This document shows, piece by piece, positions 1,025 through 26,553 of a stretch of DNA of 29,459 bases (the stretch's first letter is position 1; each line of letters opens with the position of its first letter). A program made the position numbers and the translations under genes. The notes under the pieces are model-generated. The model was not told where the DNA came from and did no database searches. It saw only the letters and a program-made list of their open reading frames with translations. Source of the stretch: a virus; the UHGV virus genome UHGV-0099905; one strand, 5' to 3'.

Positions 1025-1058
1025 GGGATAACTTACTTTACCATCGGTTATCCCTTTT
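1025..1058 (+). terminator. Hairpin GGGATAAC-N14-GTTATCCC followed by TTTT, 21 nt after the MCP stop
   Basis: 8-bp perfect inverted repeat at 1025-1032 and 1047-1054, T-run at 1055-1058. The loop (ATAACTTACTTTACC, 1028-1042) resembles the recurring ACTTACTTA motif. Confidence 0.45.
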
Positions 1059-1372
1059 AGCCGCACAAATTTTAGCCATGGCTTTTCAGGAAGTCAGGGC
1101 TATCAGAATGGCCTTAGAAAGCCTAGTCAAAGAGCTGTCACGAGAACACCGTTAGCTTAGCGTACGATTTTTTCCGAATTCTGCGGTTCCCCCTATTCCG
1201 CGTTCTGCAATCACACTCGCTCAGTGTGTCCCATTTTGGTAACGAGGCTGGAAACTGACCTCGCTGGTGTTTGACTTCTTAGGCTACTGCCAGGTATGCA
1301 TCTTCGTTTGCAGTTATATTTAACGTTCAAACAGTCGCATCTCAACGAAAACAAAGTGATCTTATACATATT

Positions 1373-1396
1373 AGATAAGTAAGTAAATACTTATCT
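1373..1396. promoter_or_regulatory. Palindromic motif copy AGATAAGTA-agtaaa-TACTTATCT
   Basis: 9-bp perfect inverted repeat with 6-bp spacer; overlaps the stop codon of the 1391-1696 gene at the end of the ligase operon. Confidence 0.5.
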
Positions 1397-1696
1397 ATCT
1401 GTAATGCGTTTAGTTGCTATTTTTTTGATCAGGCTCCCCTTTTGTTCCGGAGTTCTCGTGATGATGGCGGTAAAACGCTTCGCTTGAATAGTGATAGTTT
1501 CGTTTTCCTTGAGTTCGCCGTAATGCGTCTCTAACAGGGACCCCAGACGCCACAGACCGTCGTCTATGCGTTTATGGCTGGCGAATCTGATCAGCAGTAG
1601 CTTTACGATTAACTGACCAACGTAAAAGGCAAATCCGAAGCCGGCCGCAACAAGGTAGGTTGCCAGCCACCAGTCGAAGGAAGTCAAATTGCTCAT
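1391..1696 (-). CDS. Small membrane protein (101 aa, one N-terminal TM helix), last gene of the ligase operon
   Basis: ORF in track; hydrophobic segment WWLATYLVAAGFGFAFYVGQLIVKLLLI; its ATG overlaps the stop of the upstream 50-aa ORF (ATGA). Confidence 0.5.
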   Translation of the reverse strand: MSNLTSFDWWLATYLVAAGFGFAFYVGQLIVKLLLIRFASHKRIDDGLWRLGSLLETHYGELKENETITIQAKRFTAIITRTPEQKGSLIKKIATKRITDR

Positions 1697-1845
1697 TTTC
1701 GCACTCCCGTCTCGTGAACAACCCGATACACACGCTTACCGACACGAAGTGTTTTGGTTTTCAGTTCCTGCTGGACCAGGGCGCGGCAGATTGCGAGGCC
1801 GAGGCCCACGCCACCAGTAAAAGATAAAATGATGTATGGAATCAT
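1693..1845 (-). CDS. Unlisted 50-aa ORF, predicted single-pass membrane peptide (MIPYIILSFTGGVGLGLAICRALV...)
   Basis: Hand translation of the reverse complement of 1693-1845; ATG overlaps the stop of the upstream gene (TGATG) and its stop overlaps the downstream ATG (ATGA). Below the track size cut-off. Confidence 0.4.
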   Translation of the reverse strand: MIPYIILSFTGGVGLGLAICRALVQQELKTKTLRVGKRVYRVVHETGVRK

Positions 1846-2057
1846 CAGTGCGCCCCCGCCTCAGTCAATTGCTGCAACAACAAATAACCTTTTTCAGTCA
1901 GTTGATAGTTCTCAATACATCCCTTTGGAGAAACGTTGGCGACAAGATTCATGCGCTCCAGTTTGGCTCTGGTCTTCGGCTTCCAGTTGGCGTAGAACTC
2001 CTTCCACTTGCTAATTTCACGCAGGGTTTCCTTCTCTCGTTTACTTAACATGATCAT
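1845..2057 (-). CDS. Small soluble protein (70 aa), possible winged-helix-like DNA binder
   Basis: ORF in track; basic, with the segment YQLTEKGYLLLQQL reminiscent of wHTH wings; start lies inside the 3' end of the upstream 59-aa ORF. Confidence 0.4.
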   Translation of the reverse strand: MIMLSKREKETLREISKWKEFYANWKPKTRAKLERMNLVANVSPKGCIENYQLTEKGYLLLQQLTEAGAH

Positions 2058-2220
2058 CCTTAATCTCCTTCAGTGTGTCCGTGATATCTACTATGCGATA
2101 AATACGACCTCGCCTTTGCATGACACCGGCTTTTACGTAATCGTGGATACAGCTGGACATAACCAGACTTCCGATAACAATGCCGACGACTAAAAATACA
2201 AACATCCAGCCGAGCATCAT
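2041..2220 (-). CDS. Unlisted 59-aa ORF, predicted single-pass membrane peptide (MMLGWMFVFLVVGIVIGSLVM...)
   Basis: Hand translation; ATG overlaps the ligase stop codon (ATGA-type coupling); N-terminal hydrophobic helix. Confidence 0.4.
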   Translation of the reverse strand: MMLGWMFVFLVVGIVIGSLVMSSCIHDYVKAGVMQRRGRIYRIVDITDTLKEIKDDHVK

Positions 2221-3539
2221 TCTTTATCTCCAATACGATCTTCGGTATCTCGAAGACATTTAGGCCACTTCAGACGTGGATGACGCAAGCTACCATCTGG
2301 CGTTTTCTCATGGCAGTGAACCTCAACGATGCGTCCACGATACTTCTCCTGATTGTTCCAGATTTCATCCAGGTATTTATGCTTGATACCGCTGGCACGA
2401 ACGATGACGCCGTTCTCCAGACGAATCACTATCTTGCCTAGCGTATGCGCAAAGCCAGAGTCCGGATCGCCAGGCTCGAAGTCGATGACTTCACCGTCTT
2501 CTGAATCCTCGTCTTTCAGCTTCCACCAGCTGCGGGTACGTTTGAACTCGTAAACTGAATCCGGATCTTTGCCCATCTCTCCCTCTTCATTCTCGTCCAG
2601 TCGCTTCATGAAACGTTCGATGAAATCTTCGTGGCTATGGATGATGTAGAACGGATGAAGGTGGATATCTTGCGCATAATCTTCCACGCAAGTGTTGCGG
2701 AACAACGCCACCAGCATAGCCAGGCGCTCTTTCAGCTTCATACCGGTCTTCAGGTACTCTTTGCTTTTTGCTTGAGCACGCCACTCCGGTAAGAAGAAAT
2801 CGAAAATGTGGTAAACGGCACCAATGGCTTTCACGTTCTTCTTACGAAGCGCCGACACTGACTGGTTGAATGTACCTGCAGTGCCCTCTCCATCGAAGAA
2901 GATGTGATTGAAGCCGGAGAGTCTGCCCCGCTCCAGCATGGCTGGTTTAAGGTGATCGAGTGACGTAATCGGATTGCCGGTGCGCGTCAGGAAATTGACC
3001 TCACCCTCGTCCACGATGACTTCGCAGATAACCCGGAGACCATCGAGTTTGAGACTGCCGATCATTGGCCACTTGGCCTTTGGATTTGGTTTAAATGGGT
3101 ATTTGTCGCCTTTCTCCTTGTACGGAGACGCCAGCTGTACCTCAAACTTCGGAATTGGGTTTTTGAACACCTTGTTGCACAGGCTGATGCCGACACCGGC
3201 TTTCGGATCTTTCAGCAGGAAGCGACGAAACACGTCCTGCCCGTCAGCGCACATCGAGGCAACGAGTGATTCGACAGCAGCAATAGCGATGTTCCCGGTC
3301 AGTTCGCGCGCTGCCAGCTTCTCCAGCAGATCTACTACCTTCTGGTCGCTGGGTACGGAAGTATCGAGTGGCTCGGCCACTTTGTACTTCTTCACACCGA
3401 ATCGAATGAATGGATTGAGCATTAGCGAGACCATGCTCTGTTCAAATTCATCCAGATTGGCCAGCGCCTCTTTCTTGGCGTTGGTTCCCATCGTTTTAAT
3501 AGCATCCAGCTTGTGCTTTAGGGCGATCAGTTTTTCCAT
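2217..3539 (-). CDS. ATP-dependent DNA ligase, phage T7 ligase-like, with N-terminal extension
   Basis: Nucleotidyltransferase motif I KLDGLR, motif V-like RSWWKLK, and C-terminal ETPDGSLRHPR closely resembling the T7 ligase C-terminus (TPDGSLRHP) as recalled. Confidence 0.85.
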   Translation of the reverse strand: MEKLIALKHKLDAIKTMGTNAKKEALANLDEFEQSMVSLMLNPFIRFGVKKYKVAEPLDTSVPSDQKVVDLLEKLAARELTGNIAIAAVESLVASMCADGQDVFRRFLLKDPKAGVGISLCNKVFKNPIPKFEVQLASPYKEKGDKYPFKPNPKAKWPMIGSLKLDGLRVICEVIVDEGEVNFLTRTGNPITSLDHLKPAMLERGRLSGFNHIFFDGEGTAGTFNQSVSALRKKNVKAIGAVYHIFDFFLPEWRAQAKSKEYLKTGMKLKERLAMLVALFRNTCVEDYAQDIHLHPFYIIHSHEDFIERFMKRLDENEEGEMGKDPDSVYEFKRTRSWWKLKDEDSEDGEVIDFEPGDPDSGFAHTLGKIVIRLENGVIVRASGIKHKYLDEIWNNQEKYRGRIVEVHCHEKTPDGSLRHPRLKWPKCLRDTEDRIGDKE

Positions 3540-3573
3540 TAGTGTTTAACCTCCATCGGTCGCTCGGGAGTTT

Positions 3574-4049
3574 TCATGTGTTTTCTTTGGTTGCTTCTTC
3601 AATGAGTGCCGCGTACACGTCAGTGATCGACGCCAGTGAATCGGTGGGCTTGGTTTCGGATTTAGCAGGTTCTGTTTTCTTCGTGCGATGAATAAGACTG
3701 TCAATTGTCGCGGAGTTTCGCTTCCGGGGGGCGTTCTGGCATGGTCGTTTTGCTCTTCCACTTCTTTGATAAGTGAAGACATATCGATGAAGTAGAGCTG
3801 TTCGCCTTTGCGGATCTCTTCGACCATCATTTTCAGTGCCTGACATTTACCAGCAGCAATAGCCGCAGCACAGGACTGGAACGATGTAGCCGGGAGACGT
3901 TTTTCTTTATAGGCGAGGATCGTGTGTTGGCAGACTGTATAGCTGCAATGAGCCTCATGGCCGTTGAGCTTCACTTCCGGGCAGCGCAGCGAATAACCGT
4001 TGTTTCCGGAGATAGACGGGATTTTCGACAAATCTGTTCTTGTGGACAT
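3574..4049 (-). pseudogene. First gene of the ligase operon, split by a frameshift at a G6/C6 homopolymer (3726-3731)
   Basis: Track ORFs 3546-4049 and 3574-3846 are the same strand in different frames; the plausible N-terminal part (frame A) and C-terminal part (frame B, ...KPTDSLASITDVYAALIEEATKENT) join at the C6 run; each frame is low-complexity junk beyond the junction. Confidence 0.5.
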
Positions 4050-4067
4050 GCTTCTAACCGTAATCTT

Positions 4068-4083
4068 GTACTTACTTATTAAT
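4068..4083. promoter_or_regulatory. Motif copy GTACTTACTTATTAAT upstream of the ligase operon
   Basis: Gene-oriented sequence AATAAGTAAGTAC lies 18-40 nt upstream of the ATG at 4049. Confidence 0.45.
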
Positions 4084-4096
4084 CGCAGTTTAAAGA

Positions 4097-4112
4097 AGCC
4101 CCACGAGGGGCT
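4097..4112 (-). terminator. GC hairpin (AGCCCC-acga-GGGGCT) followed by a U-rich tract on the minus strand, after the 4130-4942 gene
   Basis: Inverted repeat seen directly; on the minus strand it is followed by TCTTTAA. Confidence 0.4.
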
Positions 4113-4129
4113 AAATGTTTTATCGAGGC

Positions 4130-4942
4130 TTACCAGGTCGCCCAGCCAGTCATTTTGTCCTGAGCAGCTTCGAACCGGTATGGGTCCAGTAAATCGTTGG
4201 CATGGTGGACGGCGTAGGATTTGGCTTCTTGTTTAATCATGGGTAATTCGTTGGCCAGACGAGCCACTTGCCCTGCAAAACTGGCGAGTACTCCGTCACA
4301 TGCCTGACCCGCGTCGACAATGATGCGCACCAGGTCTAAGTCGCTGCGGCACATATCGCAGATAATGCCGTATTCCACCTCACGAATGCGCTCAACGGCT
4401 TTTTTGATATCGCCACTGACCACCAATTCCAGCAAACCAGGTGGAGTTGTCAGATCTGTTACGCGCTCGGTAACTTCAGACTGTTCGACAATACTCAGGA
4501 ACGCCGCGATGGACGGGTCATCCGCCACACCAGCTCTGACTTTGAGCGTGCGAAGAGTTGCGTCGACAATATCCTCAAACCGTTCACCTTCATCGCACAC
4601 AGTCTGATTGGTGTAGACAGTCTGATTAGTGTAGACAATGCGACCGTCGTACCATGCACCGGTACTCACTTCGACCGTTGCGTCTTTCATCTCGCGAGAG
4701 AACGCCACAAGTGCCGCGCGTTTCTGCTTAACACCTGGCAACTCCGGGGACTCTCCAAAACGAACCCAGACCTGCATGTATTTCGAGCCTTCCGAAAGAG
4801 GTGCGGCGCTCACGGACGTGGCGATATGCTCCAGCGCAGTTTGGATCGCCTCGTCGATAATCTTCTGGCGCTCTTCTGTATCAATTTCTACGCCGGATTT
4901 GTCGATGATGTCGCAGACTAACTTCTGAAATTCTTCTTTCAT
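4130..4942 (-). CDS. Hypothetical acidic protein (270 aa), monocistronic with own motif-bearing promoter and terminator
   Basis: ORF in track; AGGAG SD 6 nt before ATG; no recognisable domain by eye. Confidence 0.6.
   Translation of the reverse strand: MKEEFQKLVCDIIDKSGVEIDTEERQKIIDEAIQTALEHIATSVSAAPLSEGSKYMQVWVRFGESPELPGVKQKRAALVAFSREMKDATVEVSTGAWYDGRIVYTNQTVYTNQTVCDEGERFEDIVDATLRTLKVRAGVADDPSIAAFLSIVEQSEVTERVTDLTTPPGLLELVVSGDIKKAVERIREVEYGIICDMCRSDLDLVRIIVDAGQACDGVLASFAGQVARLANELPMIKQEAKSYAVHHANDLLDPYRFEAAQDKMTGWATW
4601..4636. repeat. 18-bp tandem direct duplication, one mismatch, in-frame
   Basis: agtctgattggtgtagac / agtctgattagtgtagac; encodes duplicated hexapeptide in ...RIVYTNQTVYTNQTV... 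of the 4130-4942 protein. Confidence 0.9.
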
Positions 4943-4982
4943 AGCAACTCCTGACTAACAGATGAAAGTATTCTTTCAGAAA

Positions 4983-5004
4983 AATAAGTAAGTATCTACT
5001 TATT
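4983..5004. promoter_or_regulatory. Palindromic motif copy AATAAGTA-agtatc-TACTTATT
   Basis: 8-bp perfect inverted repeat, 6-bp spacer, 40-60 nt upstream of the ATG at 4942; a TATAAT hexamer abuts it in gene orientation. Confidence 0.55.
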
Positions 5005-5110
5005 ATATCGGGCGCAATAGTCTGCTATACGAAGAAGCCAGGCGTAAAAACCACTCGGATGCACATCCAGCACCCGACAAAGCAGTCGGACAGGCCAGCA
5101 ATGGGTGTTG

Positions 5111-5413
5111 TCACGGATAAAGGCGTACCTCAGTCGGACAGCTTTGCGAAGTACGCCGCGCTTTTTTTAATATGTCCCGTTCGTCGGTAACCCGCTTCAG
5201 CTCTTTCTGGAGACGGCGGATCTCGGCCTGAGCATCTGACTGTTCTTTATTAGTGGAAGAATCCGGACCGTACTTCTTTATCCAGGCATAAAGGCTGTGG
5301 GTGGTGATATCGAGACGTGTTGCAACGCTGGCAACAGAATAACCGCGATCAACAACCTGTTTGACTGCTTCAATTTTAAACTCTTCGGGATAACGCTTAC
5401 CGCTCATGGGCAC
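5111..5413 (-). CDS. IS3-family OrfA (transposase N-terminal HTH protein), probably truncated at the C-terminus
   Basis: Sequence pattern typical of IS3-family OrfA; ORF in track. Confidence 0.75.
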   Translation of the reverse strand: MPMSGKRYPEEFKIEAVKQVVDRGYSVASVATRLDITTHSLYAWIKKYGPDSSTNKEQSDAQAEIRRLQKELKRVTDERDILKKARRTSQSCPTEVRLYP

Positions 5414-5470
5414 CTCTCTTTAAGTCATCTTAAATGACTCTGAGGTGTCTATTAAACCTGTGGCGATTCA
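5111..5470 (-). mobile_element. IS3-family remnant: terminal inverted repeat plus orfA only; orfB deleted
   Basis: orfA-like product with HTH (MSGKRYPEEFKIEAVKQVVDRGYSVASVATRL...) and leucine-zipper-like tail; putative IR end TGAATCGCCACAGG (reverse complement of 5457-5470); no transposase orfB downstream; the C-terminus of orfA diverges after ...ILKKA. Confidence 0.65.
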
Positions 5471-5576
5471 ATACACTAAATCAATAAGTTGGTAGCATTA
5501 CCGATGAATTTGACAATTTAAACTAAAAAAATAAACTACGAAATAATTTTAATGTTATGTTTCCATAAACATGGTA

Positions 5577-6600: not shown

Positions 6601-6729
6601 ATGGAAATGTTTTTGATTAAAATAAAAAATATTCTTTTATATTGCCCTATCATTTTTATTTTTAGTAATTTATTAGCAAGAGATTGCGATCTCTTTTTTA
6701 GTTAAAGCAAATTAGTTAAGGATTAGTCT

Positions 6730-7278: not shown

Positions 7279-7333
7279 CATGATGTTTATCGGCGGCTTC
7301 GGTCGCCGATTTTCAATCGCAAGGATTGTTATC

Positions 7334-8014: not shown

Positions 8015-8031
8015 ATTATCAGGGATTGGTT

Positions 8032-10518: not shown

Positions 10519-10528
10519 AGGATTTTTT

Positions 10529-15068: not shown

Positions 15069-15128
15069 GTGCTTTCCTTTGGTGCTTAAACAATTTGTTT
15101 TCTAATACTAAAAAAGCCAGATAGGGGA

Positions 15129-15854
15129 TCAACAGAATCGCCGTGCTTCTTCCAGTTCTTCCGGGAAGTGCGCGTAAATCACACGCTCAGGCACGATTTC
15201 CATCAACCAGACAGCGGAGAAGATGATACGGATGCGTTTATCTCGGGTAATGCCACGCAGACGCTCCAGAATCCACTCAAAATAGCGTTCCTGAATCGGG
15301 TCACGCTGCATGTCTCCAAGATGCTTAAAACTCACCAGAGAGTCATCCAGACGGGTTACAGCGCGTTTGGCTAACTTCTCTTCGAATATCTCGATCAACT
15401 CGGGCTGCCAGAGATGCTGGGGGCGCGGTAATTTGTCCCACAGCCGTCGTGCAGCTGCGGAAAGAACGGTGGAGATAAAGTAGTCGTATGAGCAGCAATA
15501 GCGGTCAGCAAACTGGCGTGCTTTCCAGAGCGACGTTTTGTTGACCGTCGACAACTCCTGATATGGCACACGCTTCAGACCGGTTGTGAATGGAGCCGTC
15601 TCATAGTGTTCACGACCATGCGACAGCATGATGTATGAGTACTGGCGCTTGTATGCCTCAGTGAAAAGGCATGTGGCCATAAGTGGGTGCATGTCGCGGT
15701 AATCAAACCACTTCGTCTCGAAGAGTTCAGCCTCGTCTTTACAGCGCGACAAACCAATGTTTTCAGCGACCCACTTGTCCATAACAGCGGTATTCCACTC
15801 TGTCATGAAATCGTACTGGTCATTGTCGATAGTGTTGAAGAAGATCTGGCTCAC
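15129..15854 (-). CDS. Hypothetical protein (241 aa), first gene of the helicase-primase operon
   Basis: ORF in track; GTG start at 15854 behind AAGGGA; motif copy immediately upstream. Confidence 0.55.
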   Translation of the reverse strand: MSQIFFNTIDNDQYDFMTEWNTAVMDKWVAENIGLSRCKDEAELFETKWFDYRDMHPLMATCLFTEAYKRQYSYIMLSHGREHYETAPFTTGLKRVPYQELSTVNKTSLWKARQFADRYCCSYDYFISTVLSAAARRLWDKLPRPQHLWQPELIEIFEEKLAKRAVTRLDDSLVSFKHLGDMQRDPIQERYFEWILERLRGITRDKRIRIIFSAVWLMEIVPERVIYAHFPEELEEARRFC

Positions 15855-15866
15855 ATGATTCCCTTT

Positions 15867-15890
15867 AATAGGTATGTACTTACTTATCTA
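15867..15890. promoter_or_regulatory. Motif copy AATAGGTATGTACTTACTTATCTA
   Basis: Near-identical to the copy at 24921-24944 (21 of 22 aligned positions); directly upstream of the replication operon. Confidence 0.55.
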
Positions 15891-15991
15891 AGTGAGCGAA
15901 TCATAGCGACTGGAGATATTTTTGGGAAGTGGAAACGGAAGGGAGTTGTTCTGGTGGGTGTCTTTTAAAAGACCTGCTTCCGTATATATTT

Positions 15992-16006
15992 AATAAGTTA
16001 CTTATT
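15992..16006. promoter_or_regulatory. Palindrome AATAAGT-T-ACTTATT in the AT-rich region upstream of the GIY-YIG gene
   Basis: 7-bp perfect inverted repeat with 1-bp spacer, same half-site as the other motif copies. Confidence 0.45.
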
Positions 16007-16136
16007 ATTTATATACAGAAACAGGCATAACTTGTCGTCTTAGACACCCAGAAGCTCTACACTTTGAGCCTGTAAAATTGATTAAAAACTTATGTGTAAA
16101 ATAGAACGCATTAGTCAGTAGCTAAGAGATGCAATA

Positions 16137-16904
16137 ATGGACGATTTATCGGTATACGCGAGATCATTGGATAAGGCTAAATACTATGTTTACTGTCTCT
16201 ATGATACAGAAGACAAGATGAAAAGACCGTTTTACATAGGAAAAGGCAAATCGACTCGTTGTCTCGATCACATCAAGTATCCCGATGACTCTCCCAAATC
16301 CATGCGGATCAAAGAACTTTTGGCTAATAAAAAATTAGGCATAGATATTCTTCGTCATGGTATGGATGAAACCACAGCCAAACTTGTTGAGGCGACATGC
16401 ATCGACCTTATGGGTGTCGGAGAGCTTACGAATAAGGTACGAGGAAGTGGTTCCATGATGGGCAGAATATCACTGGACGCCTACCATCACTTAGTGCTGC
16501 AAGAGGAAACTGAAATTGCTCCTGAGCACGCCGGTCTTGCCTTCCTGCTAAACAGCACCTACAAGTCAGGAATGTCCGCTCTGGCATTATATGAAGCTAC
16601 GCGTGGCGTATGGGCAAAGGTTCCAAGAGACGAGAATCTCAAATATGCCTACGCTACATATGGGGGCCTGATAATGGAAGTTTATCAGATTGAATGCTGG
16701 GTCAAAGCCGGTTCTCAGCAGTACTTTACAAGGGATATAGCTCTTGGCCCCGACACAAAACGTTATGAATTTGTTGGCAGAATAGCCGATGAGCATATTA
16801 GAAAACTGTATGTAGGCAAATTAATCAAGAAGCCACCAAGCTACGGCAGCCCTTTTGTGAAGGTTGGGGTGGTTAGGAATGAACATAGTGTTAGCGCGGC
16901 ATAA
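16137..16904 (+). CDS. GIY-YIG nuclease-domain protein with uncharacterised C-terminal domain
   Basis: N-terminal KYYVYCLYDTEDKMKRPFYIGKGKSTRCLDH fits the GIY...YIG...R...H pattern with a downstream Glu; about 170-aa C-terminal region of unknown fold. Confidence 0.6.
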   Translation: MDDLSVYARSLDKAKYYVYCLYDTEDKMKRPFYIGKGKSTRCLDHIKYPDDSPKSMRIKELLANKKLGIDILRHGMDETTAKLVEATCIDLMGVGELTNKVRGSGSMMGRISLDAYHHLVLQEETEIAPEHAGLAFLLNSTYKSGMSALALYEATRGVWAKVPRDENLKYAYATYGGLIMEVYQIECWVKAGSQQYFTRDIALGPDTKRYEFVGRIADEHIRKLYVGKLIKKPPSYGSPFVKVGVVRNEHSVSAA

Positions 16905-16920
16905 AGCTGACACTGTACTT

Positions 16921-17984: not shown

Positions 17985-18161
17985 TGGAGAGTTCCCTTTG
18001 CGTATATAATTATCGTCTGAAACAACTTGTTTTCTTATATGTGATATAGCCTAAATGCCTACGGCTGCGGTGTAAAGGTTATTTAGTAGGTTGTTATTGC
18101 CTATTGCTAGTAACTGTTTTCATTTGTCTGTTGAAAAAAGTGACAATCATCTCTATATTAC

Positions 18162-18264: not shown

Positions 18265-18293
18265 TGATGGCCTTCCTACATCACCGGCCATCA
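18265..18293. promoter_or_regulatory. Inverted repeat TGATGGCC-N13-GGCCATCA overlapping the RBS of the antitoxin gene (candidate TA operator)
   Basis: Perfect 8-bp arms immediately upstream of the ATG at 18304. Confidence 0.4.
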
Positions 18294-18303
18294 GGGGGTA
18301 CAC

Positions 18304-18573: not shown

Positions 18574-18580
18574 TTTACTC

Positions 18581-19102: not shown

Positions 19103-19134
19103 TGTGTCCCCCTCATTTGAGGGGAACTTCGACA

Positions 19135-19320
19135 TCACCAACCGCAAACTCTCTCTCCCATCGTATTGTGAAAAAGGATTTGGCGTTCGGTTTCTTCGGT
19201 CATTACATCGTCATTGCTGATATAAATAGGTTCAGCGCCATCGCAGAACAACACGCTGGTGGTCTGTGGCTTAATTACGCACCCACTTATCATGCAGCTC
19301 ACGATGAATGGCAGAAGCAT
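19135..19320 (-). CDS. Outer-membrane spanin candidate (lipoprotein), embedded in a different frame in the i-spanin gene
   Basis: Lipoprotein signal MLLPFIVSCMISGC with lipobox; overlaps the 3' part of 19271-19522 out of frame, the classic Rz/Rz1 arrangement. Confidence 0.5.
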   Translation of the reverse strand: MLLPFIVSCMISGCVIKPQTTSVLFCDGAEPIYISNDDVMTEETERQILFHNTMGERVCGW

Positions 19321-19522
19321 CTTTCTGACGTATTTCACTGTTCGTCTCATTCACCACTTCCACTGTGCTTTGAAGACGCTTGTTATCTTCCCGCCGTTCT
19401 TTCTCTTCCATACTGCGTCTGGCCATATACCCGCCATAGGAGTATGCGCCGACAAGGACTAGAATGACGGCGGCCAGAGTGAACAAAGCGGATTTCATTT
19501 TGAACAACAGGCCGTCGAACAT
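19271..19522 (-). CDS. Inner-membrane spanin candidate (N-terminal TM, charged periplasmic helix)
   Basis: 83 aa; TM helix SALFTLAAVILVLVGAY followed by a charged helical segment; downstream of the putative lysin. Confidence 0.5.
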   Translation of the reverse strand: MFDGLLFKMKSALFTLAAVILVLVGAYSYGGYMARRSMEEKERREDNKRLQSTVEVVNETNSEIRQKDASAIHRELHDKWVRN

Positions 19523-19524
19523 AC

Positions 19525-20217
19525 TTACACTAATCCTTTCTGGTGCTTGCGAACCTGGGACCAGGCAATGAATGCTGCCACAAGAATGGTAGCTACGCCA
19601 AAGATGATGCGTACCGTATCTCCACTGGAGATATTGCCTTGCGCTTTATCCATTGCGGCAGAAACTTGAGGCATAACGTCAGCAATTTGTGCAAGGCCAA
19701 TACCTGCAGTGACTGTAGCACCTGTGGTTTCTTTTGTTACAGGAACGGCTTTTACAGCCTTTACCGGTTTGACAATGCCGGCACGTCGCAGCCCTTCTTC
19801 GATAAGTTCTGGTGTATACCAGCTATTGGGGGTTTTCAGCGGACCTCGGCCATTTTCATGTCTAATGATCGCCTCTACCAGCGGTCTTAAGGTCTCGTAG
19901 TCATGCAGATCGATAATCATATCTGGTGCTACTCCAACGGCTTTGGATACCTCGTTCACATAAGCCAAAGTGTTGTTCTCATGTGGAGGCGCCCAGCGTT
20001 CGATGACTTCGCGGATCGTATCAATGCTGGAGCCATCTTTTGCGCGGCGCTTGTCGTGGTAAGTAATGAGTGTCACTGCCAAAGCCCGAATCCCCCACAC
20101 GGGGTCTTTGAACGTGCAGAAACGCGGTTCGGCAGGGTTGTCAATTAGCCCCTGCCACGGCGCTCCTTTATCAAGATTACCGGGGTTGTTATTACGAATG
20201 CCTCTCGGAGTTTTCAT
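19525..20217 (-). CDS. Putative cell-wall hydrolase (endolysin-like) with C-terminal hydrophobic anchor; family not recognised
   Basis: Position between holin-like gene and spanins; N-terminal motif RGIRNNNPGNL; C-terminal TM IIFGVATILVAAFIAWSQV; start placed at ATG 20217 behind AGGAGA. Confidence 0.35.
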   Translation of the reverse strand: MKTPRGIRNNNPGNLDKGAPWQGLIDNPAEPRFCTFKDPVWGIRALAVTLITYHDKRRAKDGSSIDTIREVIERWAPPHENNTLAYVNEVSKAVGVAPDMIIDLHDYETLRPLVEAIIRHENGRGPLKTPNSWYTPELIEEGLRRAGIVKPVKAVKAVPVTKETTGATVTAGIGLAQIADVMPQVSAAMDKAQGNISSGDTVRIIFGVATILVAAFIAWSQVRKHQKGLV

Positions 20218-20230
20218 CCTTGATCTCCTG

Positions 20231-20554
20231 TTATTGCAATCCATTTTTTACGCCATACGCGGCCAATCCTAAAAGCAGTACGGTAATAATGAACGACGTT
20301 ATTTTCGAAACAATGCCGCCAAAGAACCCACTGGAGATGGTGTCGAGCCGGTTAAGAAGTTTGTCCAGATTGGAGTGCTGAATGCTGTGTTGTGCGGGCG
20401 TCATATCGCCAAAGTAGGTTTTGAGCTGGTCATTGACCTCCTGACCAATTTCCTCGCGTATTTCTTTACCTAATTTGCCTACGACTTCCCGAGCAACGAT
20501 TGAGGCGATGCGCTCAACCTGTTCAGTTGTGACTCCCGCCATCTCGTTCGACAT
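20231..20554 (-). CDS. Holin-like small membrane protein (single C-terminal TM)
   Basis: 107 aa from the ATG preceded by GGAGGA; C-terminal TM ITSFIITVLLLGLAAYGV; first gene of the lysis-like cassette; an extended -10 (TGGTATAAAT) lies upstream. Confidence 0.4.
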   Translation of the reverse strand: MSNEMAGVTTEQVERIASIVAREVVGKLGKEIREEIGQEVNDQLKTYFGDMTPAQHSIQHSNLDKLLNRLDTISSGFFGGIVSKITSFIITVLLLGLAAYGVKNGLQ

Positions 20555-20620
20555 GTTTTCCTCCATGAAAAGTCAAATCGGGATGGCGAATTTATACCAC
20601 AAATATTACCTTTTTTGTAG

Positions 20621-20632
20621 GTAAGTACTTAC
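20621..20632. promoter_or_regulatory. Perfect 12-bp palindrome GTAAGTACTTAC (motif copy) upstream of the lysis-like cassette
   Basis: Overlaps the stop codon of the Gly-rich gene; followed at about 25 nt by TGGTATAAAT. Confidence 0.5.
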
Positions 20633-21423
20633 ACACGAGAACCGTATATTGCTCCGACGGCGATCCATTGAGGGGCATTACCCATGACAGCAGCCCCAGC
20701 AGCCCCACCGCCATATCGATTTCCAGAGTTGCCATAACACGCTCCACCTGCCGCTCCAACATTGCCACCAGTACCGCCATGATTAGCGTTAACCCCAGAC
20801 CCAGTACCTGGAGCAGTAAGCGAAGCGGCCCCAGCAGCAGCACCACCATTGCCTGAATACCTACCTGCAGCACCAAATGGCCTGCCACCGCCACCACCTA
20901 CCAGATAGGCTCCGACAAAGCCGGCATCCCAATAGCCACCACCGCCACCACCGCCACCACCGCCACCACCGGCAATAGCACCATTATTGGTAATACGTAG
21001 TCTAGTTCCTATTGCATTCTTAATCGCGGCCCCACCAGCAGAACCCGCTGAGTTTGACCCGCCATTTCCTCCTCTCCCATATATGGTAACTCCACCATTA
21101 ATTACGAGGTTAATATATGAGTTTGATAAGTCACCAGGAAAGTCTAGGCAAGGGACTGTACTACTTGTAGAAACTAAATCCCCTGTAATAGTAACTACTA
21201 CAGGTGTAGAGCCAACAGAGCGTAAATATGATATTAATGTGTCTTTGTTATAATTGTGATTAGCCCCTATTGAGTAGTAAATCTCTTTTGACCTACCGGC
21301 CATCTGTGACATATTTCCTGCTGCCGACAATTGGACTGTGGTACGGGCAGCACTCATCCAACGTTGCCCTGTTTCGGAAACCGCTGATGATCCTATCCAT
21401 CCTGGAACATTTGAAATTGACAC
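20629..21423 (-). CDS. Glycine-rich protein (264 aa) downstream of the side tail fibre gene
   Basis: ORF in track; GTG start after GAGAGGG; central G12 run and GG/GN repeats; N-terminal non-repetitive domain. Confidence 0.6.
   Translation of the reverse strand: MSISNVPGWIGSSAVSETGQRWMSAARTTVQLSAAGNMSQMAGRSKEIYYSIGANHNYNKDTLISYLRSVGSTPVVVTITGDLVSTSSTVPCLDFPGDLSNSYINLVINGGVTIYGRGGNGGSNSAGSAGGAAIKNAIGTRLRITNNGAIAGGGGGGGGGGGGYWDAGFVGAYLVGGGGGRPFGAAGRYSGNGGAAAGAASLTAPGTGSGVNANHGGTGGNVGAAGGACYGNSGNRYGGGAAGAAVMGNAPQWIAVGAIYGSRV
20936..20973. repeat. Simple-sequence repeat (CCACCACCG)x4 encoding the poly-Gly run
   Basis: Seen directly; the 9-bp unit keeps the reading frame. Confidence 0.9.
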
Positions 21424-21485
21424 AATAACCCTCTCAAATATTATGACAGTTTATTATGGGAGAGGTCTTAGCCTCTCCAACATTA

Positions 21486-24400
21486 TCATATTTTTTGTTC
21501 AATGATTGCTGCCAGCTCTTTAACAGCCTCAATAAGAAGTGCTATTTGTGCAGAATTTGAAATAGTCAGAACATCTTCGCCATTTGCATCTTTGTAAGCT
21601 GAAACAGCTTCCGGTAAAACCTTTTGGAGTTCCTGAGCAACAACACCCGCCTCACGACGAACCGTACTAGATTGAAAATTTTCCTTTTTATCGTAAATTA
21701 ATCCGCTCAGTACTTTCACCTTACTCAGAGCATTTTTAATCGGTGCGAAGTTACTTTTAAGTCTGGCATCAGAGCGGATATAAACATCGTTAAAGTTACC
21801 ATTACCTCCACAAACCCAAGTACCATCATTTTGAAGATATGCGTTCGCATCCGTGCCATTCGCGGTACGTGAGTTGTTGATCATGTAAAAACCAAACTGA
21901 CTGTTTCCCAAGCCACCCACAAAGAATTTGCGATCCGCGTGGTCTTGTCTCAACAACGCTTGTGCAGAGCTTGTGCTTACAGCATTCTTCCCGAAGATGA
22001 CGTTCTGGCTCCGCATATCGATCCATGCGCCAGAACCGCTGTTGATAGAGTAGCTGTTGGCATAAACCCATGCACTTGACGTGATATCCCCCGTTACACT
22101 CAACGGCTTAAGGCTTTGCAACGTGCCATTAGTGAACCGAAAAACATGGGCATTATTTGCATAAACATCAAGAATGCCATCACCATTCTGTTTTAAGCCA
22201 GTATCATTATCGCCTAATACGATAGAGTTTCCGCCAAGCGCATTCGACACCCCTAATCCGACGCTACCGTTAATTACTGCCCCATTACTAATATCAACGC
22301 CATTTCCAAGTGTCACTCGTCCTGTTGTATTGCTAATATATAGTGGACGTAAAGGTCCCCAACTTCCATGTTGATCACCTGAATTTGTCAACAGAAAGTA
22401 AGTATTCGCCCCATCATTTCGAATGAAGAAGCCATAATTCCCATATACTGCACGGAAAGCATTTGCTGTTTCGGAAACCACCTCTCCATTTATACTCATT
22501 GTAATAGTATTGTCAGTGTTTCTCTGACTGTAAAAGTGATAGCCTTGATCGTCTTTGAATTCAATTACCGTTGGCCTTGAAGAATTTCCCCATACCTGCA
22601 TATAAGTATTCAGTGACGGAGTTTCAGTAGTCTGCACCCTGAATACTTTCCCGTTTGAATTTTGAAATCCAAGTGACCCGGTTAAAGTTCCTCCGGTTAA
22701 TTTCAAAAAGAGTGCATCAATCCATCCAGCGAAACCCGGTTTATTGATATACACGTTGCCATCATTGGCAAATATACCACCACCAGGTGATCTTAATGGC
22801 TGCGACATATTCGCCAAAGTCAATTGGCCTGACATTGAATCGCCAGCTCGATTAAAGTCGCGCCTCCAGCCTGGCGCATAAGAGTCACCGTGGTTGATGT
22901 AGGTAAACTGAGCCTTGACGGTTCCGCCATTCGTTGCCGTCGTGGGGGTAGTGACGCGAATCGTCATAGCATCCCGAACCCCCATAACTTCAACTACAGC
23001 GCCAGCGAGTTGTATATTCCCACAACCGGTATCCGTGATGATTTTATTGGCAGCGTAAGACCAAGAGCCTTTGCACATCCAGTATGGATAATTGAATGCC
23101 CCCTGAGACTCCAACCACTCAATAAATTGCGCCGTCGTCCAGTTGTTGCTGTCTCCCCCAATACTGATACTGCCGCCAGCAGCTTTCGCTGCGCCAATAT
23201 TTTTTGCGAAGGTGTCTTTGCTAGGTATATCCGCGCCATTCTGGTCTTTCCGAAGGCGTGTTTCAGCATTGTCGTATGCGGCCTTCACGGCCTTTGATGT
23301 GGCCGCATAACTTTCACTGCTATTGTTGGTATCACTGTTAAGCTGAACAAGCCCCTTTTGCGACGTGGTGGCGTCCTGTGCAGTGTATTTGCCATTAGCA
23401 AGATCATATGCTGTCTTTACTGCTTTTGGGGTGGCTGCAAATGACTCCGATTCGCTATTAGTTGAGCTACTAAGTTGTACTATTCCCTTATTCGTCGTGC
23501 TTGCATCCTCAAGCGCCACGGCGGATGCAATATCCTCAGCTCGTTTTGCCGCTGTCTCAGAGCGTGTTGCCGCGGATTCTGCCGCATTTTTGCTCTGCGC
23601 AGCCGCCGTCGCACTGTCTGCCGCTTCCGTCGCCTTCGTTGATGCCGTTGTCGCACTCTCTGCTGCCGCTGACGCCTGGCGAGCGGCCTCATCTTTTGAA
23701 GATGACGCCGAGGAAGCTGAAACAGAGGCAGAGCTTGCAGATTCGGCTGCTGTCTCCTTAGAAGCAGCGGCATTGTCTTCTGAAGTCTTTGCATTGGTTT
23801 CAGAAGATTTTGCCGCCTCTGCTGACTTTTCCGCAGCTGTTGCCTGTTTCGTCGCCTCTGTCGCTTTAGCGGTGGCATTTGCCGCGGATAACGAAGCGCT
23901 TTCCGCAGACTTTTCTGCCGACGTTGCACTTGATGAAGCACTATCCGCGCTTACTGAGGCCGCGCTCGCTGACGTTTCTGCCGCAGATTTCGAACTGTTT
24001 GCAGACAATGCACTCTGTTCGGCAGCAGATTCAGACGCTTTTGCGTTTGTCTCTGATGCTTTTGCTGCCTTACATGAATTTGCAGCTTCTGTAGCTGATG
24101 ATGCTGCCGCGTTTGCACTCGATGAAGCGTTAGTCTCTGATAATTTAGCCGCATCCTTAGATGCAGAGGCACTGGACGCTGATGTGGCTGCCTCCGATGC
24201 TTTAGTCGACGCCACAGATGCTGATTCTGCTGCCGCTTCTTTTGCCGCTTCTGCGTTTGTTTCAGATTTTTCCGCAGCAGCTGCACTCTCACTCGCCGCA
24301 CTTTGTGAAGATACCGCAGCGGATGCACTTTGAGATGCCTGAGAGGCTTTTTCTACAGCAGTGTTGGCACTTTCTGCCGCAGCGACAGCACTGGCCGCCG

Positions 24401-24875
24401 CCTCCCGAGCTTTGTCTCCAGCGGCCTCAATCGCATCGGTGTTATTTTTATACCACTCAACGTTTTCGTTATGCTCGTTGACGATCTGCATTAGCGGCTT
24501 AACGGTCACTTCTGTACCGTCTTCACGCTCGATTGTCACATCATCCAGAGCGGTCAACCAACTGCGCATGGACTTGGAATCAGCCGACATACGCGACATT
24601 AGTGCAGTAAAGCGCGCACTAAACTGAGTTAAGTCGCCTTCATAGGTCGTAATGATTCGGCACGGAACTTTAGATTGAGTTTCGCCGGTATAAGGTTCTG
24701 AGAGGACAATGACCGTATCACTGGTTACGCGCTTGACCTCATACAACTTATTGTCAGGACCAATGACAATCATGCCCGGTAACACGCCGTTTTCGGTCAA
24801 ATTCCAACGTGTTCCGATGCCTGATATTGTGTCGCTTCCTTTTGTAAATGTAACAGTACCTTCCCTGTACCACAT
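21486..24875 (-). CDS. Side tail fibre protein (lambda Stf-like) with Ala/Ser-rich coiled-coil region, phage fibre repeats and C-terminal S74-type intramolecular chaperone
   Basis: KRAEDIASAVALEDASTTNKGIVQLSSSTNSESESFAATPKAVK closely matches the lambda Stf repeat as recalled; C-terminal SDARLK...VLPEAV chaperone/autocleavage pattern; start moved to ATG 24875 behind AAGGAG (the track ORF begins 31 codons upstream). Confidence 0.85.
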   Translation of the reverse strand: MWYREGTVTFTKGSDTISGIGTRWNLTENGVLPGMIVIGPDNKLYEVKRVTSDTVIVLSEPYTGETQSKVPCRIITTYEGDLTQFSARFTALMSRMSADSKSMRSWLTALDDVTIEREDGTEVTVKPLMQIVNEHNENVEWYKNNTDAIEAAGDKAREAAASAVAAAESANTAVEKASQASQSASAAVSSQSAASESAAAAEKSETNAEAAKEAAAESASVASTKASEAATSASSASASKDAAKLSETNASSSANAAASSATEAANSCKAAKASETNAKASESAAEQSALSANSSKSAAETSASAASVSADSASSSATSAEKSAESASLSAANATAKATEATKQATAAEKSAEAAKSSETNAKTSEDNAAASKETAAESASSASVSASSASSSKDEAARQASAAAESATTASTKATEAADSATAAAQSKNAAESAATRSETAAKRAEDIASAVALEDASTTNKGIVQLSSSTNSESESFAATPKAVKTAYDLANGKYTAQDATTSQKGLVQLNSDTNNSSESYAATSKAVKAAYDNAETRLRKDQNGADIPSKDTFAKNIGAAKAAGGSISIGGDSNNWTTAQFIEWLESQGAFNYPYWMCKGSWSYAANKIITDTGCGNIQLAGAVVEVMGVRDAMTIRVTTPTTATNGGTVKAQFTYINHGDSYAPGWRRDFNRAGDSMSGQLTLANMSQPLRSPGGGIFANDGNVYINKPGFAGWIDALFLKLTGGTLTGSLGFQNSNGKVFRVQTTETPSLNTYMQVWGNSSRPTVIEFKDDQGYHFYSQRNTDNTITMSINGEVVSETANAFRAVYGNYGFFIRNDGANTYFLLTNSGDQHGSWGPLRPLYISNTTGRVTLGNGVDISNGAVINGSVGLGVSNALGGNSIVLGDNDTGLKQNGDGILDVYANNAHVFRFTNGTLQSLKPLSVTGDITSSAWVYANSYSINSGSGAWIDMRSQNVIFGKNAVSTSSAQALLRQDHADRKFFVGGLGNSQFGFYMINNSRTANGTDANAYLQNDGTWVCGGNGNFNDVYIRSDARLKSNFAPIKNALSKVKVLSGLIYDKKENFQSSTVRREAGVVAQELQKVLPEAVSAYKDANGEDVLTISNSAQIALLIEAVKELAAIIEQKI

Positions 24876-24895
24876 GTTCTTTTTCACTCCTTGAA

Positions 24896-24919
24896 GTGTG
24901 GGCGTCCCCCCGCCCACAC
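24896..24919. other. GC-rich hairpin (9-bp stem GTGTGGGCG / CGCCCACAC, 6-nt loop) in the 5' leader of the tail-fibre gene
   Basis: Seen directly between the motif copy and the RBS. Confidence 0.5.
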
Positions 24920-24920
24920 A

Positions 24921-24944
24921 AATAGGTATATACTTACTTATTAT
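24921..24944. promoter_or_regulatory. Motif copy AATAGGTATATACTTACTTATTAT
   Basis: Near-identical to the 15867-15890 copy; 45-70 nt upstream of the tail-fibre ATG. Confidence 0.55.
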
Positions 24945-25012
24945 CCATGATACAAAATCCTTTTGCACTAAGAAAACACGCTATATACATTGCTGCTCAT
25001 TATTCCTATCAA

Positions 25013-26533
25013 TTAACTGATGCCCGACATGGAAAATGCGCCACTTCCACGGCTGATTAGCATCACGGGCGAATAAATATGTGTCTGTGATGAACTGGTC
25101 ACTTTTACCGTAACAGCAACAGTTCTTGAGGTAACATTGTTAAAAGCAGCGTAAAGAGTGCCACCGACGCCTGTAGAACTTGTCGAATTAAGATCAGGGT
25201 CTCTGTATGTTGCCCCCTTACCAGTGGTTGCGGTCTTCGTCACTCCATTGCAGGTAAATTGGGCTGCAACAGGGCCGACGCCCCCCGTATATACATTTAT
25301 TGCCACATAAATATTTTTGGGCAATGCAGACGAAGAAGAGTCTGTATATGTCATTGTATATGTGCCGTTGTAACGAACTGAGAAGTCATTGCCCACATAC
25401 ATGTTAGCGACATCGCCTACGAAGTGATCTGCTTGTACCGTGCCTCTGAATGTTCCGCTGGTAGCCTGTATTTCTCCTGTGAATTTGCCATTCGTTGCGT
25501 AAACGGTGCCTCTAACAGTTACATTGTTAAACTCTGAGTTCCCGTTTTTATTAATATGCCACCCCGTCATCCCGCTTGAGTAATCGTTGGACTGAATGAA
25601 GTTGCCTATTTTGGCGTTATCAATGGTGCCGTTCTTGATATAAGCTCCGTTCATATAAGCCACACCGGCATCAATAACGAATGGCGTTGTAATTTTCCCA
25701 TTAACGGAGTTCACCAAACCAAAGCGATCTGCCTGCACCAAAAACTGCGATAGACCTGTTGTGTCGATGCCCAACGCTATGCCGGCAACATATTTTTGGC
25801 CTCCGCTGGTGGAGGTTTCCATTTTCAGCGTCCAGGCTGTTGATACCTTCTTGTTCGTATCAGCAATAGCTGTGGCCTGTTGTTGAATTGTTGCTGTATT
25901 TCCATCTACTGATGCTTTTAAGGTGTCAACTCTCCCACTTAGTGCATTGTCGGCGCTTGACGCATCAAACGTCACCTTGAAGCGCATCGTCTGGTGTTCA
26001 GCGCCGACTCGCTCGGTTTTCTCGCGTTTGTCCTCATCGACCGGCTCGTCATCGCCACGGGAGAGCGCTTCCAGCGCTTCAAGATCGATAACGGACGCTT
26101 TGGCGAGTGTTGCCGCCATTTCGTCGTCATACGGGGCGATATCGGACAACCGGTAGTCGATTTCAGACTGGATTTCTTCGATTAAGCGCTGCAAAGCGAC
26201 CTGATCGTCTTCGCCGTAGCGCTCGTTGTCGACGAGGGAAATCTGTTTAGCCACCAGATCGTTAATTTTGCCCACGGAGATGACGGGAACCGTTGAAATG
26301 CCCTGCTCCATCGCGGCACGCCAGCGGTGTTCACCACCGAGGATCTCAAAAATGCCCCCGTCCAACTCCCGCGCCAGAATTGGCTTAAAAAAGCCCAATT
26401 TTTCGATAGAGCCTTTCAGTTTTTCGAAGTTTTGCGCCCCAACGGAGTTGGTATTCCAGGGATTCGGACGCAGGTTCGCGACTTCCACCTGCAGAATCGT
26501 AATTTTCACACCCATAATTCTGATACAATCCAT
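25013..26533 (-). CDS. Chimeric protein: N-terminal ParB/Srx-like nuclease domain fused to a lambda J-type (host-specificity / tail-tip) C-terminal region
   Basis: N-terminal LRPNPWN...ILGGEHRWRAA resembles ParB box motifs; an acidic linker follows; the C-terminal half (FLVQADRFGLVNSVNGKITTPFVIDAGVAYMNGAYIKNGTIDNAKIG...) resembles the C-terminal receptor-binding part of J-like proteins; single uninterrupted ORF. Confidence 0.55.
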   Translation of the reverse strand: MDCIRIMGVKITILQVEVANLRPNPWNTNSVGAQNFEKLKGSIEKLGFFKPILARELDGGIFEILGGEHRWRAAMEQGISTVPVISVGKINDLVAKQISLVDNERYGEDDQVALQRLIEEIQSEIDYRLSDIAPYDDEMAATLAKASVIDLEALEALSRGDDEPVDEDKREKTERVGAEHQTMRFKVTFDASSADNALSGRVDTLKASVDGNTATIQQQATAIADTNKKVSTAWTLKMETSTSGGQKYVAGIALGIDTTGLSQFLVQADRFGLVNSVNGKITTPFVIDAGVAYMNGAYIKNGTIDNAKIGNFIQSNDYSSGMTGWHINKNGNSEFNNVTVRGTVYATNGKFTGEIQATSGTFRGTVQADHFVGDVANMYVGNDFSVRYNGTYTMTYTDSSSSALPKNIYVAINVYTGGVGPVAAQFTCNGVTKTATTGKGATYRDPDLNSTSSTGVGGTLYAAFNNVTSRTVAVTVKVTSSSQTHIYSPVMLISRGSGAFSMSGIS

Positions 26534-26535
26534 TG

Positions 26536-26553
26536 TATAAGTACTTACTTACC
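26536..26553. promoter_or_regulatory. Motif copy TATAAGTACTTACTTACC (contains palindrome TAAGTACTTA) in the divergent intergenic region
   Basis: Lies 3 nt from the ATG of the minus-strand gene and about 45 nt upstream of the plus-strand helicase ATG. Confidence 0.5.

Follow-up and report, generated by a model that had tools for sequence, protein, structure and literature searches.

A family-wide dyad motif coupled to -10 elements in the backbone of SSU5-like phage-plasmids

What is the role of a palindrome that recurs along the 29,459-nucleotide DNA of UHGV virus genome UHGV-0099905 (the whole stretch analysed, hereafter the window)? A preliminary description had counted nine copies of it, with half-site ATAAGTA/TACTTAT, and had seen in them the signature of one element-encoded regulator; the sequences and perfect inverted repeats that it gave (spacers of 6, 6, 1 and 0 bp) are correct. 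Sequence comparison identifies the window as the defective remnant of an SSU5-like phage-plasmid, carried within an IncY resistance plasmid. We show here that the motif is real, restricted to the phage-plasmid backbone, present throughout the family and physically coupled to conserved -10 elements. It is an apparently undescribed regulatory motif of a kind already known, namely operator or promoter signals that a phage regulator recognises at dispersed sites; no description of it was found in the searchable literature by sequence string or by SSU5 and pHCM2 keywords. We consider it likely that the motif is the operator or promoter element of one family-specific regulator. Binding by a protein, the involvement of a single regulator and the sign of regulation are points that we infer.

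In an unbiased k-mer screen, TAAGTAAGTA/TACTTACTTA was the most over-represented 10-mer of the window (6 observed, 0.04 expected) and again ranked first in the independent genome of Salmonella phage SSU5 (9 observed, 0.05 expected). Allowing at most one mismatch, TARGTANNNNNNTACYTA has 5 matches in the window for 0.14 expected, a number reached in none of 100 shuffles. A likewise unbiased ranking of inverted-repeat dyads placed TAAGT-N8-ACTTA first, both in close relatives and in a lineage with 81-85% capsid-protein identity. The unit is an 18-bp dyad, TARGTA-N6-TACYTA, flanked by A and T (full consensus aTAAGTAAGT.ACTTACTTAt), in which the centres of the two TARGTA hexamers are 12 bp apart. 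Each half-site is internally a 4-nt repeat (TAAG-TAAG-T), which explains why spacers of 0, 1 or 6 bp had been described. Many sites are asymmetric, with one inner half (ACTTACYTA) retained and the other degenerate, while the sites at 15867 and 24921 are identical at 20 of 22 positions.

A symmetric scoring matrix of 26 columns, trained on 25 SSU5 sites only, matched the window at 1372, 4057, 4981, 15865, 15983/15990, 20614, 24919 and 26530, with 10 raw matches at or above 12 bits as compared to 0.17 in shuffles. Eight of the nine copies first described were recovered in this way, whereas the one at 1029-1046 is not a member of the family and the one at 15992-16006 is doubtful. The coordinates are collected in Table 1.

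The distribution of the motif follows the backbone. At a threshold of 12 bits, the window has 7 sites, SSU5 has 27 and Escherichia phage Cyrano has 29 (2.4-2.7 per 10 kb). None was found in 164 kb of control DNA, comprising 65.6 kb of non-backbone DNA from plasmid pLAO59, 50 kb of the E. coli K-12 chromosome and 48 kb of phage P1; the E. coli segment contained no site of 10 bits or more either. By the k-mer screen and the shuffles, the motif is far above chance. The remark that the fimbrial, insertion sequence (IS), par, phd/doc and tacAT modules of the window are free of copies also holds, with no match of 8 bits or more inside any of them, and the other strong matches in pLAO59 lie only in a second SSU5-derived segment (7.5-13.9 kb). 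SSU5 is about 88% coding, yet nearly all of its copies are intergenic. Of about 75 gaps between 2 and 84 kb, a region of head, tail, lysis, replication and nucleotide-metabolism genes, 29 carry the motif, and the region from 85 to 99 kb is nearly devoid of it. SSU5-like elements are found in Escherichia, Salmonella, Klebsiella and Cronobacter.

Within SSU5 gaps, the motif usually lies 0-20 nt past the upstream stop codon and 0-970 nt ahead of the next start. To some extent this closeness to stop codons is to be expected anyway, because the motif holds stop codons in two frames per strand and ends any open reading frame (ORF) that reaches it. The view that every copy marks the start or the end of an operon fails in complete relatives, where the motif is also present in short gaps within the late operon and once within the portal gene. 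It overlaps the terL stop codon in the 26-nt terL-portal gap, lies between the stop codon and the terminator of the capsid gene in 34 of 34 variants, and occurs in one copy within the 3' end of the portal gene.

We then considered the relation of the motif to promoters in orthologous upstream regions aligned from 160 fetched loci, with 30-53 distinct relatives per alignment. In these alignments, the motif is fused at fixed spacing to conserved, putative -10 elements at window positions 4981, 20614 and 26530, and the copy at 1372 is probably coupled to one likewise. Upstream of SSU5_042 (49 distinct sequences), the conserved block consists only of the motif and TGTAAnAAT, an extended -10 element; no insertions or deletions separate the two, except in one lineage where the -10 element is 3 nt closer, and the DNA beyond the motif is unrelated between lineages. 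Upstream of the holin gene, most of the 53 variants keep the motif, a variable spacer of about 21 nt, T.TG.TATAAA and a conserved leader; the motif is absent in one lineage and the spacer is shortened in another. Upstream of the helicase gene, the motif abuts (T/C)ATAAT in 30 variants. No -35 box is seen in the SSU5_042, holin or helicase promoters, where the dyad occupies that space, and the SSU5_096 and SSU5_073 promoters also have a -10 element without a -35 box. In all five promoters, it is the stronger dyad half (ACTTACYTA) that points towards the -10 element. The backbone shows no excess of canonical -35/-10 promoters (4 observed for 4.3 expected, and 10 for 17 expected).

Table 1. Coordinates of motif copies and associated elements in the window.
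Feature	Position	Strand	Remarks
Rejected copy	1029..1046	.	<8 bits; outside SSU5-homologous DNA, which starts near 1191
Motif copy	1372..1397	-	28.4 bits; TAGATAAGTAAGTAAATACTTATCTA; orthologous SSU5 site 41774
Candidate regulator, 70-aa core protein (SSU5_046 / CYRAN_37)	1845..2057	-	Predicted minimal winged helix
Half-site-type copy	4057..4082	-	13.5 bits; TAAGTAAGTACAAGATTA on the minus strand
Putative extended -10 element TGAAAGAAT	4970..4978	-	TGTAAGAAT in most relatives; no -35 box
Strongest promoter-type copy	4981..5006	-	31.1 bits; upstream of SSU5_042 homologue (start codon 4942)
Motif copy	15865..15890	+	31.8 bits; 52 variants aligned
Conserved block with sigma-70-like TTCCCA-17-TATGAT	15900..15928	-	Upstream of 15865 motif; CCAGTCGCTATGAT nearly invariant
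Weak copy	15983..16008	.	10.7 bits; AATAAGTTACTTATT
Putative extended -10 element TGGTATAAA	20591..20599	-	21 nt past 20614 motif
Motif copy	20614..20639	-	19.6 bits; upstream of lysis cassette (holin start 20566/20554)
Motif copy	24919..24944	-	29.6 bits; upstream of tail-fibre gene
Motif copy	26530..26555	+	19.4 bits; 64-bp divergent region
Putative -10 hexamer CATAAT	26553..26558	+	Abuts motif; helicase gene; TATAAT in relatives

The individual copies of the window fit into this picture to different degrees. The putative -10 element of the SSU5_042 homologue lies 5-6 nt past the flanking T of the motif, and that of the holin gene is followed by a conserved leader, GCCATCCCGATTTGAC, and a ribosome-binding site. 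The 26530 copy lies in the divergent region between a ParB_N gene (start 26533, minus strand) and the gene of a UvsW-like DEAD helicase (start 26598, plus strand). The 1372 copy overlaps the stop codon (1391-1393) of the last gene of the ligase operon, the SSU5_048 homologue, and is followed on the minus strand by a -10-like element, TGTATAAGAT. The 4057 copy lies about 10 nt past an intrinsic terminator (4112-4097) and 11 nt ahead of the start of the SSU5_043 homologue, with TAAGTAAGTACA.GA.TA kept in 28 variants. The SSU5_038 homologue, which heads the DnaB-primase operon, starts at 15854 on the minus strand, and the 15865 copy lies 11 nt ahead of this start. At the 24919 copy, no recognisable -10 element is present.

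Expression of the motif-associated genes was assessed from the supplementary table of a published Cyrano RNA sequencing study, with mostly uninduced cultures and five conditions (PMC9928086). CYRAN_34, the SSU5_042 homologue, shows a step up of 2-3.4 log2 units over its upstream neighbour in all five conditions. Together with the helicase gene CYRAN_118, it is expressed about fivefold above background in lysogens, and in both cases the dyad overlaps the core promoter. The holin gene, CYRAN_91 and CYRAN_31 are silent, and most motif-adjacent genes are at background. The holin gene and the SSU5_096 homologue, both silent, have poorer -10 elements. With dyad-overlapped promoters active in lysogens and those with poorer -10 elements silent, an absent activator fits better than a bound repressor.

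These observations can be assembled into a model of positive control, which we favour tentatively and hold at somewhat less than an even chance. One dimeric regulator with sequence specificity, supplied by the SSU5-family phage-plasmids themselves, would bind the dyad, whose copies, about 30 per genome, would define a backbone-wide regulon. The dyad would replace the -35 box of host sigma-70 promoters that retain only a -10 element, often extended. In the window, the transcription units concerned would be the SSU5_042 homologue with the ligase operon, the lysis cassette and the UvsW-like helicase. The bound protein would recruit or re-target the host RNA polymerase to these -35-less promoters and thereby switch on lytic genes, while the promoters with the best -10 elements would retain some basal activity in the plasmid state. 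We also count for activation that a defective remnant stably retains an intact lysis cassette behind a motif promoter: the holin, endolysin and spanin ORFs (19271-20566, minus strand) are intact, with lengths similar to those of their SSU5 counterparts. The remnant cannot make virions, and the lysis promoter must be silent in this plasmid.

Several observations weigh against activation. The distance from the motif to the -10 element varies (about 0-1, 6, 8-11 or 21-22 nt), whereas the geometry of activator sites is usually constrained, and a site centred near -22 sits poorly with such a role. Non-orthologous SSU5 sites show a significant enrichment of -10-like sequences at 8-12 nt (p = 0.002 and 0.007), but to the same degree on either flank, and part of it may reflect AT-richness. 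At SSU5_038, a conserved sigma-70-like promoter may precede the motif; if the TTCCCA-17-TATGAT block is a real promoter, the 15865 copy is placed at about +9 to +30. At the ParB_N gene and at SSU5_066, the motif abuts the start codon, which, like the SSU5_038 arrangement, is a repressor-like position. No promoter adjoins the copies in the terL-portal gap, between the capsid stop codon and terminator or within the portal gene. Finally, motif gaps and upward expression steps are not significantly associated genome-wide in the Cyrano data, which are mostly uninduced and underpowered for this comparison (Fisher p 0.2-0.96), and a weak association with downward steps appears in one condition only (p = 0.03; PMC9928086).

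Part of this evidence would be explained by a global repressor, that is, one phage-plasmid protein bound to about 30 dyads, occluding the -35-less promoters and acting as a roadblock in the gaps, so that the 100-kb lytic genome is silenced in the plasmid state, much as with the dispersed C1 operators of P1 or the KorA/KorB regulon of IncP plasmids. Dyads are typical of repressor operators, and the site, at whatever distance from the -10 element, is always within the RNA polymerase footprint. The positions at SSU5_038, the ParB_N gene and SSU5_066 agree with such a role, as do the background expression of most motif-adjacent genes in lysogens and the extended -10 promoters, which require no activator. 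In addition, a CYRAN_45-type helix-turn-helix (HTH) repressor retained in pLAO59 has an inner palindrome resembling GGTAAGTGCTTACC just upstream of its own gene. However, SSU5 has 27 sites and no CYRAN_45 homologue, and two genes with core promoters covered by the motif, the SSU5_042 homologue and the UvsW-like helicase, are nevertheless expressed in lysogens. Promoters that are strong after derepression would be expected to have -35 boxes, and these have none; moreover, the palindrome AAAACAAnTTGTT, described below, is better placed as an immunity operator. On balance, we regard global repression by the dyad as rather unlikely. The binding site of a host regulator such as NarL/NarP is the least probable of the explanations considered. 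NarL and NarP recognise the heptamer TACYYMT, arranged in 7-2-7 sites as TACYYMT-NN-AKRRGTA. The half-site TACYTAT fits this heptamer, and the host range of the family is broad, but the two heptamers of the dyad are ordered the other way round with 6 bp between them, the motif is confined strictly to backbone DNA, and the E. coli chromosome segment lacks sites.

The palindrome could instead act in RNA or in single-stranded DNA, as a post-transcriptional stabilising, processing or terminator-associated stem-loop comparable to repetitive extragenic palindromic (REP) elements or RNase III sites. Its symmetry, its usual closeness to the upstream stop codon and the GC-rich hairpin or terminator that follows it in five SSU5 gaps would suit this. 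The stem, however, would be short and AU-rich, and its only variable position (R/Y) forms Watson-Crick pairs in 48% of 243 distinct sites as compared to 42% expected; A.C or G.T combinations occupy that position in more than half of the sites, and no covariation is observed beyond two flanking positions. What is conserved is the sequence of the hexamers and not their pairing. Terminators follow the motif in four cases, precede it in five or are absent, without consistent relation, and the closeness to stop codons is in part forced, as noted above. On the covariation test with the 243 distinct sites we reject a hairpin or cruciform model, and we give a post-transcriptional role very little credit. 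The motif is not an intrinsic terminator itself, being AT-rich and without a T-run, and the terminators are separate. The lack of stem covariation, the conserved hexamers and the inconsistent terminators point to a dimeric protein that reads two half-sites on duplex DNA. Only marginally more credible is a recombination linker or mobile intergenic cassette that does not act on transcription directly, comparable to the promoter early stem-loop (PeSL) cassettes of T4 or to lambdoid boundary sequences. Lineages share the motif and the DNA downstream of it but have unrelated DNA upstream, and the accessory modules and deletions of the window are bounded by motif-containing gaps. On the other hand, 18 bp is short for homologous exchange, and the fixed spacing to the -10 element, the orientation of the stronger half towards it and the conservation of the hexamers at about 30 non-homologous positions indicate selection for binding and not mere tracts of homology.

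Among known systems, the late promoters of P1 are the nearest analogues in design, with the MotA-box middle promoters of T4 also close. The P1 late promoters, which depend on Lpa and SspA, belong to an enterobacterial phage-plasmid as well, and combine a -10 element without -35 box with a short AAGT/ACTT inverted repeat in many dispersed copies. In the annotated P1 record they read AAGT(G/T)ACTT-N4-TAnnnT, and the exact P1 box, AAGTTACTT, is found in the window only at the 15992 site. The P1 box is a 9-bp AAGTnACTT near -22, located 4 bp from the -10 element, whereas the SSU5-family site is an 18-bp dyad with outer TARGTA hexamers whose edge is about 9, 21 or 0-1 nt from it. P1 contains no match to the SSU5 matrix in 48 kb, and tblastn detected no Lpa homologue in SSU5 or the window. 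The C1 repressor of P1 offers a parallel in regulon size, with one regulator acting at many operators that overlap promoters of many operons over a phage-plasmid of about 100 kb. C1 operators, several of which are annotated in the P1 record, are asymmetric 17-mers related to ATTGCTCTAATAAATTT; they are unlike the dyad in sequence and absent from late operons. In contrast, the SSU5-family dyad is symmetric, occurs also in structural and lysis regions, and overlaps two promoters that are active in lysogens.

T4 middle promoters have a -10 element, no -35 box and a MotA box, (a/t)(a/t)TGCTT(t/c)A, near -30 and 11-13 bp from the -10 element, and are used after sigma appropriation by AsiA. The -10-proximal half T(A/G)CTTA at SSU5_042 and SSU5_096, centred near -27 to -30, resembles this arrangement, and the genes driven form, following the Cyrano annotation, the functional set known from T4: UvsW, UvsY, a gp32-like single-stranded DNA-binding protein, ligase, NrdAB, Td and Frd. 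The MotA box is, however, an asymmetric monomer site, as opposed to a dyad at variable distance from the -10 element. Neither MotA nor AsiA occurs among the annotated products or the precomputed Pfam matches (including those for 88-103 kb), no targeted search having been made. KorA and KorB of IncP plasmids also act at a palindromic operator repeated over a plasmid backbone at variable distances from promoters, and ParB_N-domain proteins are encoded beside one motif copy; unlike KorB, the two ParB_N proteins of SSU5 have no detectable HTH. The motif lacks the defining sequence and spacing features of the P1 late and C1 systems and is a member of neither; it is probably no MotA or KorA/KorB site either. 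MarR-family operators are similar in that they are pseudo-palindromes of 16-20 bp bound by winged-helix dimers.

Of the proteins that could bind the motif, the 70-aa core protein (SSU5_046/CYRAN_37), already named in the preliminary description, is a reasonable candidate and nothing more. Its gene belongs to the operon that the 4981 and 1372 copies delimit, and its family is confined to SSU5-like elements. It has no Pfam match, while its structural model (predicted local distance difference test score 80) matches winged-helix domains of MarR, MepR, FabT and PadR with template modelling scores of 0.65-0.75; the dimerisation helices of MarR proteins are absent. The idea of one element-encoded regulator is supported by a dyad that is restricted to the backbone, conserved in the family and coupled to -10 elements, but the dedicated RNA polymerase included in the original proposal is unlikely. 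No polymerase or sigma factor is found among the annotated SSU5 or Cyrano products or in the Pfam stretches looked up, which cover the proteomes in part. KorB-like binding by ParB_N proteins appears unlikely, as SSU5_125, SSU5_126 and the fusion ORF of the window match ParB_N only, with no HTH at E values up to 1. A search for P1 Lpa with tblastn in SSU5, the window and pLAO59 gave chance matches only (E >= 1). None of nine candidate proteins, a subset of the SSU5 proteins, matches PF25716 (BPP1_LPA), a profile that P1 Lpa itself matches at 3e-57. SSU5_054/055 were set aside because they appear, from position and Cyrano annotation, to be a HicB/HicA pair. Nine further candidates gave nothing significant in Pfam, and the early region of SSU5 has no precomputed Pfam matches.

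SSU5_121 was also rejected as the regulator, being a FljA-like flagellin repressor (Pfam Flag1_repress, 3e-81). FljA is the repressor of phase-1 flagellin. This close homologue is encoded on the minus strand of the SSU5 locus L005 (46897-47343) and also occurs at locus L170 (12328-12855); its gene seems to be one of lysogenic conversion.

A second palindrome, AAAACAAnTTGTT, is also dispersed, frequently with AAG in front of it; in the window it occurs at 15088-15102 and 18020-18034, ahead of the DnaB and ParA-like genes. SSU5 has about 14-18 such sites (for instance 30448, 42728, 82467, 88369, 92758 and 94524), concentrated at 80-95 kb. They are located 10-13 nt past good sigma-70 -10 elements and 12-21 nt ahead of start codons, and their genes are other than those next to the dyad. 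From this placement, the palindrome could be an immunity operator, in the classical position for a repressor, or an element of 5' untranslated regions. A more daring proposal, which we regard as improbable, is that the dyad represents a new class of phage promoter in a temperate phage-plasmid with T4-like replication and recombination genes. A small family-specific factor, possibly the 70-aa winged-helix protein, would then re-target the host sigma-70 polymerase to promoters without a -35 box, as a dimeric equivalent of T4 MotA/AsiA or P1 Lpa that reads a dyad, and AAAACAAnTTGTT would be the immunity operator, yielding a two-tier switch throughout the SSU5 family.

Other conserved elements adjoin motif copies. 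On the upstream side of the 15865 copy, a non-coding block of about 55 nt (15895-15950), CCCTTC.GTTTCCACTTCCAAAA.....CCAGTCGCTATGAT, is nearly invariant in 52 distinct relatives and could be a sigma-70 promoter or a small transcript of the opposite strand. The 15992 site, doubtful as a family member, forms the apex of a separate AT-rich hairpin of about 50 nt (15974-16024; CCTGCTTCCGTATATA...TATATACrGAArCAGG, dG -20 to -26 kcal/mol). This hairpin occurs in at least 3 copies in SSU5-like genomes, including SSU5 positions of about 33455-33515 and 78305-78365, and is followed in SSU5 by a T-run. Beside it in the window, a free-standing gene for a GIY-YIG (LEM-3-like) nuclease (16137-16904, plus strand) takes the place of an SSU5 DUF2971 gene on the opposite strand, and may be a homing-endonuclease insertion adjoining the hairpin element. 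On the minus strand, a GC-rich hairpin directly follows the 24919 copy and precedes a ribosome-binding site. The layout is the same at SSU5 21938 and Cyrano 22445 with different stem sequences. The tail-fibre leader hairpins (window 24875-24918, minus strand; SSU5 21958-21993; Cyrano 22471-22510) have stems GTGTGGGCG/CGCCCACAC, GGCGGGC/GCCCGTC and GGCGGGC/GCCCGCC, that is, the pairing is kept while the sequence differs between lineages, suggesting a conserved RNA structure. Outside the window, eleven iteron-like repeats CACTACAGTGGATA flank repA at 58.8-61.0 kb of SSU5 (L005 8872-10952), a region that is probably the plasmid origin.

The assignment of the window relies on the following comparisons. 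Positions 55-25000 have a reported identity of 100.0% to E. coli plasmid pLAO59 (NZ_OP242238), a 9-nt length difference aside; pLAO59 is an IncY multiresistance mosaic. From about 1191 to 28900, the window is 84-89% identical to SSU5 and Cyrano, and this SSU5-derived DNA is interrupted by a fimbrial operon, IS elements, phd/doc and tacAT. Positions 55-1193 are 100% identical to the "aerotaxis sensor receptor" region of a P1 variant (MH445380), which, with the IncY (P1-type) replicon on the same plasmid, indicates a mosaic of P1-like and SSU5-like phage-plasmid DNA. The minus-strand ORF at 25013-26533 is chimeric. Its 506 residues comprise a first portion (1-192) with 99.5% identity to the ParB_N protein SSU5_125 and a remainder that corresponds to the C-terminal part of the tail-tip protein SSU5_020. 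This fusion implies that all head and most tail genes have been deleted and that the element is defective.

SSU5-like phage-plasmids, among them the pHCM2-like plasmids and Cyrano, occur widely in Enterobacterales and frequently bear resistance genes, and we found no published description of how they control plasmid maintenance versus lysis. With about 30 copies per genome, the motif maps regulatory sites across the family and provides a handle for finding the master regulator. It also offers a way to predict which resistance-plasmid remnants keep controllable lysis genes.

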